From positions 192,001 through 256,000 of the forward strand of contig CAWECG010000004.1 in the NCBI GenBank assembly GCA_963807605.1: a stretch of 64,000 nucleotides of DNA, in the 5' to 3' direction. Below are positions 30,968-54,423 of the stretch, in pieces. The notes beneath the pieces were generated by a model. The model ran no database searches. It was given only the letters and a program-made list of their open reading frames with translations, and had not been told where the DNA came from. How positions within the stretch are numbered: the first letter of the stretch is position 1; the number at the start of each line of letters is the position of its first letter. The position numbers were made by a program, and so were the translations under genes. This DNA is from Candidatus Bathyarchaeota archaeon (lineage in GTDB: Archaea; Thermoproteota; Bathyarchaeia; 40CM-2-53-6; RBG-13-38-9).

Positions 30968-32014
30968 CTAGCAAATTCTTGGTACTGGATCCCCGATAGG
31001 TGGAAGTATGATTCTTCTTCCTCCGACAGATGTCTGAAGGATGACTTGGTTGAGCTCACTCGAAACCTCGCCAATGATCGCAGCGTCTTTGCCGAGTTTT
31101 GATTTTTTGAGGGTTTCCAGAATCTCATCCGCCTTCTCTTTAATCACCGCCACGGCGAGTTTTCCCTCGTTTCCAATCTCCAAGGGGTCTATGCCCAGCA
31201 TTTCACACGCTGCCCTGACACCAGTTTTTATGGGAATATCTTCCTCTTTGATCATGATGCCGACATGTGATTTCTCGCGCCACTCATTCAATGTGTTGGC
31301 CAATCCGCCTCGTGTTGGGTCTTTTGCCTTCACTACACCCCCGACTTGAAGGAGATCTTTCACGAGTTTGTTCAGTGGTGCTACATCAGATTTCACGTCG
31401 GTCTCGAATCCGTAACCTTCCCTAGATGAGAGTACACTTATTCCGTGATCTCCAATCGTTCCTGAGATGATTATCTTATCCCCTGGAGCAAGGTTTGAGT
31501 CAAGAAGCCATCTGGAACTAAAACGTCGGTGCTTCTTTACTTCTTCAATATTCCTATCAAGCTCAGGGATACGCTTTCCAATCCCTGATGTGTTCATTAC
31601 GAGCTGGTCTAGTGCGCCTTTCTCCATTACTTTTGTATCGCCGGTTAGAACGTAGACTTCTGCTTCTTGGCAGGCCTCATGCATACTATCAAGTATGCGT
31701 TCAAAATCTTCAAGCGGAAAGCCTTCTTCGATGATGAAGCCTGATGTTAGGGCCAGCGGCTCGGCGCCCATGACTGCTATGTCATTGACTGTTCCTGTTA
31801 TGGCCAGTCTGCCGATATCTCCCCCTGGAAAGAATAGAGGCTTGACCGTGTGAGAGTCTGACTTTAGAACAATATCGTCTATCACGGCGGAGTCATCAAG
31901 CGCCTCTAAAGGGACCTCAGCACCGCTGCCTCCGAGGTATTTGAGAATATATTCTTTAATCAGTCCCTGCATGACAGCGCCCCCTCCGCCGTGTGACATG
32001 GTGATCTTGCTCAT
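30968..32014 (-). CDS. hypE: Carbamoyl dehydratase HypE
   Basis: MSKITMSHGGGG, FFPGGDIG, GDTKV, DPTRGG, C-terminal PRIC. Start placed at ATG 32014. Confidence 0.98.
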   Translation of the reverse strand: MSKITMSHGGGGAVMQGLIKEYILKYLGGSGAEVPLEALDDSAVIDDIVLKSDSHTVKPLFFPGGDIGRLAITGTVNDIAVMGAEPLALTSGFIIEEGFPLEDFERILDSMHEACQEAEVYVLTGDTKVMEKGALDQLVMNTSGIGKRIPELDRNIEEVKKHRRFSSRWLLDSNLAPGDKIIISGTIGDHGISVLSSREGYGFETDVKSDVAPLNKLVKDLLQVGGVVKAKDPTRGGLANTLNEWREKSHVGIMIKEEDIPIKTGVRAACEMLGIDPLEIGNEGKLAVAVIKEKADEILETLKKSKLGKDAAIIGEVSSELNQVILQTSVGGRRIILPPIGDPVPRIC

Positions 32015-32104
32015 GACGCGTTCCTTCACTTGTGGAGAAGTCAACAATGCTTGCTCGTTAATATTGCTAGCAGGTCGAGAAGAGATGGTGTTAAGAGAAT
32101 ACAG

Positions 32105-32246
32105 TGGTGGGGTCGGCGGGACTTTCATGACAGCGTCAATTTGAACCCGCGACCGCCAGCGTTCTGGGTAGCTCCCCAGGTTCACCGCGCAGTGCTCTGG
32201 TATCCTCTTGGCGGTTTAACCCAAGACCAAGCTAGACGACGACCCC
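32105..32246 (-). tRNA. tRNA-Pro(GGG) with four BHB-type introns and encoded CCA
   Basis: Removing 32207-32223, 32181-32196, 32162-32173 and 32122-32139 gives the 79-nt cloverleaf GGGGTCG TC GTCT AGCTTGGTCTA GGAT A CCAGC CTGGGGC GCTGG CGGTC GCGGG TTCAAAT CCCGC CGACCCC A CCA. Confidence 0.92.
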
Positions 32247-32320
32247 ACAACCTTAGCTCTATCTGATTCAGTCTCGCGCTAATAAGATCATTTCTCGTCC
32301 ACTAACGGGCATGAGCACGC

Positions 32321-33781
32321 CTATTCCAGACGGAGATCTTTGAAGGTCTCCTTGAACAATCTCGTCAAGTAATCTTCAGTTCGAAAGCCTCTACCCTTGG
32401 CTAACATCTTTATGCTCTTGTCAACACCTGTCGAATACTGCATCGCCTTCTTGGGGGTATCAGCAAGCTTCTCGGGCAGACCAAGATCTCTGCAGGCTTT
32501 CCTAAGGATACGTTTTCTCAAACCATCGGTCGGGCTTTCAATCTTCATACTGACAGGTATCGAGAGACCATACATGATGAGTTCCCAGTCAGCGAATGGA
32601 TGCAGCATCTTCACTCTCTCAGGCGCGGTGGCTTGTTCACATGCCTGATAACTGTCCTTGTGGGCATCTAGAACCCGATGGAAGATAGCGTCTTCGAGAG
32701 CCCGCTCTCCGCCCTGCTTTAACACTTTAAGAAATCCATGGTAACCTGCAAAAAGCTCGTCAGCGCCTTGGCCAGTAAACACAGTCGTGACACCACAGCT
32801 CTCGGCCAATTTCGCAGACCAAGAGAGAGGAATTGAGACGCCCAACTTCACTTGGTTCGCCTCCTCTATTCGCCAGAGGCATTTCTTCAGTTGTTCCTCG
32901 ATCTGGTCCAACTCGTACTCCTTCGTCTCTGCCTTGATCCCTAGAAGTTCCGCTGACCTCATCGCCAACTCTGTTGCAGGGTGCCCCTTGACTCCAACAA
33001 TAAAGGCGCAGGTTTCAATCTCCAGTTTTGACAAGAGGTACGCCGTTATTGAGCTATCTACACCTCCAGAGAAACTGACGCCAACTCTTTTGAGTCCTCG
33101 TGCCCTTTCAGAAATTGACTTGTGCAGTAGTTTGCCTAGTCGCTCAGAGATCTCCGTCGTTTCTCCACGCAGGGTATTCGATGGTGTGATCTGCTTGATC
33201 GGCCACGGGGGACGATTCGGTTGCAGCTTCCATAGGTGACCAGGAGGAAAGATTAGCGTGTTACGTACTCCAAGCCTCCAGAGGCCTTTACTCTCCGTCG
33301 ACACGGCGGAGAGGTTCTCGTCTGAATAGTAATAGAGTGGTTTTAGACCAACAGGGTCCCTTGCTGCAAAGATCTCTCCGTTTGAGAGAACTGCTAGCGT
33401 GTACTGACCGTCGAATTCCGACACAAATCTTGCCAGAGCCTTCTCCGGGGTCTCTTCGGAAAGATACTCAAGCAACTCATCGAACGTTCCTCCGAAATCA
33501 GTGTAATCACTCTCGACGATGATGGAACGATCCTTAGAGGTTCTGGGTTGAGGGAAATCTCTCGGTTGAAGTCTCATTAGATTGTATGCTATTGCTGATC
33601 TAGTGCTTTGCAGCTCATTGAGGTCGCTGAGGTCTTCAGTGAAGAGCGTTTCTCGTTGTGTAGCAACCCCGAATACGTCGTTACCTCTGTGAAGTTGATT
33701 CTTGATCAGCTGGATGAGGAGTGGAACTGCGTCTGTTCCCTCCTTTGTTCTTATCGCGCTTATTGCTCCCATTCGTGTCAA
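32321..33781 (-). CDS. Asparagine synthetase B-like protein (Ntn Cys absent)
   Basis: ARDPVGLKPLYY, SFSGGVDSS, TGQGADELFAGY, KKAMQYSTG. Confidence 0.85.
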   Translation of the reverse strand: MTRMGAISAIRTKEGTDAVPLLIQLIKNQLHRGNDVFGVATQRETLFTEDLSDLNELQSTRSAIAYNLMRLQPRDFPQPRTSKDRSIIVESDYTDFGGTFDELLEYLSEETPEKALARFVSEFDGQYTLAVLSNGEIFAARDPVGLKPLYYYSDENLSAVSTESKGLWRLGVRNTLIFPPGHLWKLQPNRPPWPIKQITPSNTLRGETTEISERLGKLLHKSISERARGLKRVGVSFSGGVDSSITAYLLSKLEIETCAFIVGVKGHPATELAMRSAELLGIKAETKEYELDQIEEQLKKCLWRIEEANQVKLGVSIPLSWSAKLAESCGVTTVFTGQGADELFAGYHGFLKVLKQGGERALEDAIFHRVLDAHKDSYQACEQATAPERVKMLHPFADWELIMYGLSIPVSMKIESPTDGLRKRILRKACRDLGLPEKLADTPKKAMQYSTGVDKSIKMLAKGRGFRTEDYLTRLFKETFKDLRLE

Positions 33782-53253: not shown

Positions 53254-53520
53254 ACAATTCTTGATTTAGAGATCTTCCGGAGTGCGTAGGTGATACTGTA
53301 ATGTTGCAGTTCACCATATTCTCCATACGCTTATCGGTCAGTCTTTGCGAATACTCATAACAATAGCCTCTTCTGATATCGAGAATTTTGAAGTAGTGGA
53401 TGATTGATAGGTTGAATGGATCTCGCGTCTGAAGCCTGAGGCGACTTGAGGAAAGCTAGACGTTAACGCGCGCCAAGCATCAGTGACACGATCGAGAGCT
53501 ATCTAAGAGCTAGGGTCACA

Positions 53521-54423
53521 TTAGGTACTGACTTCCAGCCTCATCATGTCAGATGCTAAGATCGTATTTTGGAAGATTGTCTTTGCCTCCTTCAGAAGAG
53601 TGCTCGCATCCTCATAAATTGCGCTTATGTGAAGTAACACTAGCTTGTCTGCCCCCGCCGTCTTGGCTACCGTTGCTGCTTCCTCAGCCGAAGAGTGACC
53701 GTACTCCCGTGCTTTCTCTTTCTTTGAATTGTCAAATGTACAATCATGCATTAATAACGTCGCACCCTTGGCTAGTTTGATCCCAGAACTGCAAGGTCGT
53801 GTGTCCGTAATGTATACCACCTTGATTCCTCCTCTCGGCGGACCTAGGACCTGGTCAGGCCTTATCCGGATTCCTCTAGTCGTGATGGTTTCGCCCAGTT
53901 GTAGTTTCTTCCACAGAGGGCCTTCGGGAATCTCGAGGGCTCTGGCTTTGGCAGGGTTGAATCTTCCAGGCTTGTTCTTCTCAGCTAATGCGAAGCCCAA
54001 GCAGGGAACTCCGTGCTCAAGAGCTGCAGTCTCAACAGTGTACTCTTTCTCGTCCAGTATGGTGCCAGGAGTCACTTGATGGATCTCCAATTGAAAACGC
54101 TGGTTGAACCTTACTGTCCTATTGAAGGCATCGATAAAGTCTGCTATGCCTTCGGGACCGTAAATCTCGAGCTTTCTTTCTCGTCCAAGGAATGACATAG
54201 ATTGAAATAACCCGGGCAAGCCCAGAACATGGTCTCCATGCATGTGGCTTATGAACACCTTCATCTTCCTGTTGAACCCAAGCTTCGCGGTTGCCATCTG
54301 CCTTTGTGAACATTCACCGCAATCGAACATGAATAGCTCGGCTCCCCTTCGAAGGACAGTACTAGGCAGACCCCTATCCCTAGTCGGCATGGTGCCGCCA
54401 GTCCCTAAGAATATGAGCTCCAT
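53521..54423 (-). CDS. rnz: Ribonuclease Z
   Basis: FLGTGG..P, FDCGE, SHMHGDH, exosite GP motif, HSS, LHIS. Confidence 0.95.
   Translation of the reverse strand: MELIFLGTGGTMPTRDRGLPSTVLRRGAELFMFDCGECSQRQMATAKLGFNRKMKVFISHMHGDHVLGLPGLFQSMSFLGRERKLEIYGPEGIADFIDAFNRTVRFNQRFQLEIHQVTPGTILDEKEYTVETAALEHGVPCLGFALAEKNKPGRFNPAKARALEIPEGPLWKKLQLGETITTRGIRIRPDQVLGPPRGGIKVVYITDTRPCSSGIKLAKGATLLMHDCTFDNSKKEKAREYGHSSAEEAATVAKTAGADKLVLLHISAIYEDASTLLKEAKTIFQNTILASDMMRLEVST

Follow-up and report, generated by a model that had tools for sequence, protein, structure and literature searches.

A tRNA-Pro(GGG) gene with four predicted introns in a Bathyarchaeia genome with heavily interrupted tRNA genes

Reviews put the maximum number of introns in an archaeal tRNA gene at three (e.g., PMC8450103), which is out of date. 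In Asgard archaea, four introns were listed for the Freyarchaeia genes for Arg-TCT and Ile2, both by tRNAscan-SE and by curation, and for Leu-GAG and Atabeyarchaeia-2 Trp on curation (PMC11291895, Suppl. Data 4), and up to five introns per gene have been reported in Asgard (Goswami et al. 2026, bioRxiv 10.64898/2026.10.13.758758). In three Asgard families, the mean is 2.20 introns per gene, with 97% of the genes interrupted and 71% carrying multiple introns; the value for Pyrobaculum calidifontis is 1.54 introns per gene (bioRxiv 10.64898/2026.10.13.758758).

A search of the literature on tRNA introns in Bathyarchaeia, with subscription journals and GtRNAdb outside the search, yielded no report. 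The gene described here lies in a 64,000-nt stretch of DNA (the window) that belongs to an uncultured archaeon of the Bathyarchaeia. It is a real tRNA-Pro(GGG) gene, conserved and very probably functional, with splicing predicted at four introns. Taken alone, it is a clear-cut case of a known gene type and sets no record; its interest lies in the intron load of the lineage as a whole.

Gene structure and splice junctions

The gene occupies positions 32105..32246 of the window on the minus strand, as do all of its features, and comprises 142 nt with five exons, four BHB introns, and an encoded CCA. Exon 1 (32224..32246, 23 nt) carries tRNA positions 1-20b, and its junction is set by relatives without the intron. 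Intron 1 (32207..32223, 17 nt) lies in the D-loop at 20b/21 and has a 4/4 central helix with outer and inner helices of 2 bp each (hBHBh'). Exon 2 (32197..32206, 10 nt, positions 21-30) is followed by intron 2 (32181..32196, 16 nt), which interrupts the anticodon stem at 30/31 and also pairs 4/4, with outer and inner helices of 0 and 2 bp (HBh'). The 7-nt exon 3 (32174..32180, positions 31-37) contains the anticodon GGG (32177-32175). Intron 3 (32162..32173, 12 nt) sits at the canonical 37/38 site, again with a 4/4 central helix and an inner helix of 1 bp (hBH-like); its outer helix grows from 1 bp to 5 bp on removal of intron 2. Exon 4 (32140..32161, 22 nt, positions 38-59) precedes intron 4 (32122..32139, 18 nt), located in the T-loop at 59/60, a strict hBHBh' motif with outer and inner helices of 5 and 4 bp that is preformed in the precursor. 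Exon 5 (32105..32121, 17 nt) carries positions 60-76 with the CCA. As the five exons are collinear within 142 nt, a split or permuted tRNA gene was ruled out.

Coordinates, exon and intron lengths, and the four central helices are all as an earlier sequence-only reading of the locus had given them, and so is the intron share of 63/142 nt (44%). The spliced 79-nt product is identified as tRNA-Pro(ggg) by ARAGORN; its acceptor, D, anticodon, and T stems are complete and its CCA is encoded, in keeping with the fully paired cloverleaf proposed at that time. Our own splicer, a profile-plus-pairing beam search with a hand-set archaeal tRNA profile, base-pair scoring, and free choice of inserts, yielded exactly the same parse with or without motif-free jumps, and scored the locus at 94.1 versus a maximum of -2.2 in 40 shuffles.

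At all four inserts, the upstream exon pairs 4/4 with the intron stretch before the 3' cut, and every site has the elements of a BHB motif: a 4-bp central helix, 3-nt bulges, and one or more flanking helices. When each intron was shuffled, the probability of a 4/4 helix by chance was 0.066, 0.011, 0.020, and 0.024, respectively (joint p about 3e-7).

Splicing could nonetheless be partial, with one insert retained or cut in another register, the weak D-loop or 30/31 insert being the most plausible case. Motifs 1-3 do differ from the lowest-energy fold, and a second register (cut -1/+1) can be drawn for the D-loop exon/intron helix. This second register, however, deletes U20b and the conserved A21, is costlier in the host (6.9 versus 5.5 kcal/mol) as in all 17 genes tested (the host gene and those of 16 four-intron relatives), and conflicts with relatives lacking a D-loop intron. 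The one-base shift of the D-loop boundary that the sequence-only reading had allowed for is not borne out, as neither end slides in this gene without altering the mature sequence. Sliding is possible at 59/60 instead, where a shift to 60/61 leaves the product unchanged, and a BHB forms from 59/60 only. Among the 16 splice forms, ARAGORN recognized the fully spliced form and two single-intron forms only, and no partial form retaining the D-loop or T-loop insert was recognized as a tRNA. For each intron, moreover, relatives lacking it show the fully spliced junction, and partial splicing is therefore regarded as very unlikely.

Unspliced, the gene was missed by ARAGORN, which called neither a tRNA nor a tmRNA anywhere in the window. 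Rfam gave only a sub-threshold tmRNA match to the unspliced gene; a tmRNA (RF00023) was rejected, given a score of 18.9 bits against a gathering cut-off of 47 and an alignment limited to the acceptor and T-arm ends. The expectation that standard finders would miss the gene thus holds for ARAGORN and Rfam and may not extend to tRNAscan-SE, which called four introns in two Asgard genes. Most tRNAs of the host genome were missed or miscalled by ARAGORN, which distorts tRNA counts that serve as genome-quality criteria. A second ARAGORN "Pro" call, on contig C1, was rejected, being Leu(UAG) with two introns.

Genomic context and conservation in relatives

Downstream of the tRNA lies hypE (30968..32014, minus strand), a full-length match above the TIGR02124 cut-off with its start at ATG 32014. 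Upstream is an asparagine-synthase-like gene (32321..33781, minus strand), which falls below the TIGR01536 cut-off. hypE adjoins tRNA-Pro(GGG) in 9 of the 12 family relatives fetched, the asparagine-synthase-like neighbor is also found in relatives of several families, and the order of all three genes is retained in most of the host's family, f1. The longest open reading frame here (30968-32185, minus strand) begins at a GTG within intron 2 and so annotates part of the tRNA as HypE. This 405-aa frame from GTG 32185 was rejected as an N-terminal extension of HypE in favor of the true start at ATG 32014; under naive ORF calling, hypE thus runs into the tRNA gene.

An AT-rich motif (32279..32294, minus strand), 33-48 nt upstream of the tRNA, is conserved in several family members in the alignment, is common to several genera, and is a candidate archaeal BRE/TATA promoter. 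A scan for sigma-70 promoters and terminators, which does not cover archaeal promoters, gave no match at the locus. Far from the locus, the ends of contigs C3 (from ~1,155,000) and C4 (from ~725,000) have a GC content of 66-70% versus 47% for the genome and are possible chimeric joins.

Searching the order with a 5'-exon pattern gave matches in 31 of 41 genomes. The identical four introns are present in all 12 f1 relatives fetched, in 3/3 of family f5, and in one f10 genome, and the other families have two or three introns in varying combinations, with a fifth site at 45/46. For every junction there is a relative in which it is continuous, so the exons are set independently of the BHB motif. 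The exons are near-invariant across the order and the intron loops are variable. Among distinct orthologous introns, a 4/4 central helix is found in 16/20, 22/22, 17/18, and 16/21, where chance would give 2-7%. At 30/31, where all 22 distinct introns pair 4/4, a change at tRNA position 26 is compensated in the intron. In a 14-sequence alignment, 97.1% of the BHB cells are paired and six pairs show two-sided change (0/500 shuffles), compared to 35-45% paired in slid-partner controls; the aligned genomes are kin, so this pairing is support and not a probability, and few events underlie the covariation counts.

These patterns bear on whether the locus is a pseudogene or degraded tRNA with neutral insertions, with a working Pro(GGG) gene in the unassembled part of the genome. 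The assembly is 94.4% complete, and the gene goes unseen by standard finders, both of which leave some room for this reading. Against this, the exons are kept while the intron loops diverge, and BHB pairing is maintained by compensatory changes. A total of 46 tRNA genes were recovered from the host genome, one per expected anticodon plus three CAU, so the other 45 are all accounted for, and 44 of the 46 are interrupted. Pro(GGG) is single copy among them, which answers, for this assembly, a point that had been left for checking, and all three Pro anticodons are present once each. Neither an intact Pro(GGG) copy nor a junction-spanning 16-mer was found in the host assembly, and CCC and CCU make up about 48% of the Pro codons (a crude count on long ORFs). 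Decay of the gene is thus extremely improbable.

Among 119 named archaeal matches, tRNA-Pro(GGG) is intact in most Bathyarchaeia beyond this group. A Ca. Brockarchaeota sequence (L089, JAFNJA010000080.1) has a tRNA-Pro(GGG) with four introns, at 20b/21, 30/31, 45/46, and one in the T-loop, a set of sites that differs in part from that of the host. A contig labelled Dormiibacterota bacterium (L104, DASPWZ010000033.1) carries an archaeal three-intron Pro(GGG) of the type seen in family f2 and is probably misbinned.

In an EF-2 tree, obtained by a quick search only with one marker and one long-branch outgroup, family f1 is a clade (SH-aLRT 98), which makes the four-intron state at least as old as this family. 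Above the family level, the tree is compatible both with one ancestral gain followed by losses and with repeated gains.

Splicing enzymes and order of intron removal

The host encodes two PF01974 (EndA) genes and one RtcB, all above cut-off. The two EndA genes are located on contigs C4 (about 303.0-303.9 kb) and C3 (about 661.5-662.0 kb) of the host genome. EndA alpha (188 aa) has the triad Y125/H133/K164 and loop lysines K41/K43 that align to K44/R46 of A. pernix, and its closest matches are the catalytic subunits of Sulfolobus, Aeropyrum, and Pyrobaculum (E 1e-38 to 1e-34). EndA beta (175 aa) is a separate paralogue without the His motif. In A. pernix, the Crenarchaea-specific loop enables EndA to cut D-loop and relaxed motifs (PMC3241643). 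RtcB is the archaeal 3'-5' tRNA ligase (PMC3400036). By comparison with the A. pernix enzyme, we infer that the host EndA is a heterotetramer able to cut relaxed, non-canonical motifs.

The tRNA-Pro(GGG) gene would be transcribed as one precursor, in which an (alpha-beta)2 EndA would cut each of the four introns within the 3-nt BHB bulges and RtcB would ligate the exons, giving a mature tRNA that reads CCC/CCU. Judged from sequence, the locus is very probably a functional single-copy gene whose four introns are cut by EndA and whose exons are joined by RtcB, with transcription, cleavage, ligation, and their order as predicted steps.

As to the order, we somewhat favor removal of 59/60 first or independently, then 30/31 before 37/38, with 37/38 last. 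C31 is bulged in one of the two anticodon-arm motifs but paired in the other, which suggests that 30/31 is removed before 37/38, and the anticodon stem supporting the 37/38 motif forms only after 30/31 removal, which would place 37/38 last. In the host precursor, the folding cost is 0.6 kcal/mol for the 59/60 motif and 5.5-6.7 kcal/mol for the other three. Median costs in the full precursors of 16 relatives are 2.1 kcal/mol for 59/60, 2.6 for 30/31, 4.1 for 20b/21, and 6.1 for 37/38. In these relatives, the median for 37/38 drops from 6.2 to 4.5 kcal/mol after 30/31 removal, and 30/31 is indifferent to 37/38 (3.9 versus 4.0). In the host only, the 30/31 motif becomes cheaper once 37/38 is removed (8.3 versus 4.3), so that energy alone leaves the host order unfixed, and removal of 37/38 last is kept as the modestly better guess. 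The 37/38 intron is also the last to be removed in C. merolae (PMC3728597). Within 142 nt, the gene combines a strict motif, a relaxed motif, and two motifs that depend on each other, and so offers a compact substrate for studying ordered splicing by a broad-specificity EndA.

Intron load of the host and comparison with known systems

The tRNA genes of the host contain 99 introns (100 if Glu(UUC) holds two stacked introns), about 2.15 per gene; 96% (44/46) are interrupted, and 74% have multiple introns. Two genes have no intron, 10 have one, 19 have two, 11 have three, two have four (Pro(GGG) and Asp), and two have five (Tyr and Trp), so Pro(GGG) is not the host's most interrupted gene. The sequence-only reading had considered four introns exceptional, which fails within the host as well as against the four-intron genes tabulated in Asgard (PMC11291895) and the five introns reported there (bioRxiv 10.64898/2026.10.13.758758). 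Our splicer rewards BHB-like boundaries, which introduces some circularity into the genome-wide count of 79/99 introns with a 4/4 helix; the Pro junctions escape it, being set by intron-free relatives.

The five BHB introns of tRNA-Tyr(GUA) (host genome G000, C2:+53336-53549) are located at 9/10, 30/31, 37/38, 53/54, and 59/60 and leave one exon of 6 nt. The identical five introns are found in 12/12 family relatives and a different five in one f2 genome (L183-L194, L163). tRNA-Trp(CCA) (G000 C1:-69922-70173; orthologues L203-L229) likewise has five introns, a state seen in all ten f1 relatives fetched and also in f5, f6, and f8. Its conserved 37/38 intron spans 57-68 nt and contains C/D-like boxes as well as segments complementary to the anticodon arm, features which we take to resemble those of the known archaeal Trp intron guide RNA.

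The Trp 37/38 intron lends some weight to the idea that the four Pro introns likewise serve a function that keeps them in place, for instance as guides for modification or by making the supply of tRNA-Pro EndA-dependent, and are not merely tolerated. Their positions are conserved throughout f1 and common to f5 and f10, yet rare precise loss predicts this conservation equally. The Pro introns are only 12-18 nt long with variable loops, and little is kept beyond the BHB. For each of them there are relatives that lack it, and most other Bathyarchaeia matched have no intron in the gene. A function for the Pro introns is thus possible but unlikely.

In the tRNA-Trp of family f8 (L210, L211), the introns at 10/11 and 45/46 share exon context and in L210 are identical at 16/17, which makes it likely that in L210 one intron gave rise to the other by copying within the gene. 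Along the lines proposed for Thermoproteales, the Pro introns might similarly be recent gains that were copied from other tRNA genes. A cross-isotype match of at least 70% was found for 33% of the host introns compared to 20% under a null with splice ends kept. At 80%, however, 0/97 host introns match one in another tRNA type, where the published share, obtained by a different method, is 28.3% in Thermoproteales and 1.5% in Asgard. The four Pro introns are, moreover, older than the f1 radiation, and recent copying is an improbable origin for them.

Of the four introns in tRNA-Asp(GUC) (G000 C3:+457915-458082), two interrupt the acceptor stem (4/5 and 68/69). The central helix of the 4/5 intron includes two bases of the 5' leader, which implies that splicing would be needed before the RNase P cut. 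tRNA-Glu(UUC) (G000 C1:-533464-533586; also L270-L273, L277) has an insert of 27-30 nt at 37/38. As a single intron, this insert forms no BHB (0-1 of 4 pairs); as two stacked introns with one shared purine strand, removable inner-first only, it pairs 3-4/4 and then 4/4. A UCA anticodon obtained from the host Glu(UUC) gene in another cut register is probably a false reading.

The EF-2 coding sequence contains a 31-nt BHB-bounded insert (G000 C1:+210688-210718), the removal of which joins the frames. For most genomes of the order, the match to the aEF-2 model begins near position 21, versus positions 2-4 in outgroups. In two f2 sequences (L253, L255), the open frames that hold EF-2 are 1085-1270 aa long, and model positions 1-40 match 1.7 kb upstream, which suggests a large in-frame insert, for example, an intein.

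We consider it likely that this one Bathyarchaeia order is a further lineage, outside Asgard and Thermoproteales, at the highest recorded tRNA-intron load. This reading takes in the mean of about 2.15 introns per gene, Tyr and Trp genes whose five introns are conserved at the family or order level, stacked introns that can be removed in one order only, and BHB inserts that extend to mRNA, as in EF-2. If true, near-complete genomes would allow testing whether a permissive EndA drives the spread of introns across tRNA and mRNA. The extreme tRNA interruption of some Asgard classes is thus also seen within one order of Bathyarchaeia, with the Pro(GGG) gene intact in most others matched, and the order versus other Bathyarchaeia provides a separate natural comparison for the origin and persistence of tRNA introns.

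The Asgard archaea resemble the host in having four introns in one gene, as in the 143-nt Arg-TCT of Freyarchaeia, and the 2.20 introns per gene, 97% interrupted genes, and 71% multiple-intron genes of their most intron-rich families are close to the 2.15, 96%, and 74% of the host, although the methods are different. Few cross-isotype intron families and a two-subunit EndA are further likenesses. The host lineage differs in being Bathyarchaeia, which are absent from both the bioRxiv preprint and PMC11291895, and the tabulated Asgard Pro(GGG) genes (n = 3) have 1, 1, and 3 introns versus four in the host.

Thermoproteales (Pyrobaculum, Thermofilum) share with the host non-canonical BHB introns and neighboring motifs that form sequentially (Sugahara 2007, 2008, as reviewed in PMC8450103 and PMC4390854), as well as an (alpha-beta)2 EndA with the Crenarchaea-specific loop, which for the host is predicted from sequence. 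They have at most three introns per gene and at most 71 in 46 genes (PMC8450103), compared to up to five per gene and 99-100 in 46 genes in the host. In Thermoproteales, introns have often been copied recently from one tRNA type to another, which is not seen in the host (0/97 at 80%).

The nuclear tRNAs of Cyanidioschyzon merolae are similar in that a single gene can hold a D-arm, a 37/38, and a T-loop intron, for which RT-PCR has shown ordered removal ending with 37/38 (Soma et al. 2013, PMC3728597). They differ in being eukaryotic, processed by a eukaryotic endonuclease, and interrupted by at most three introns.
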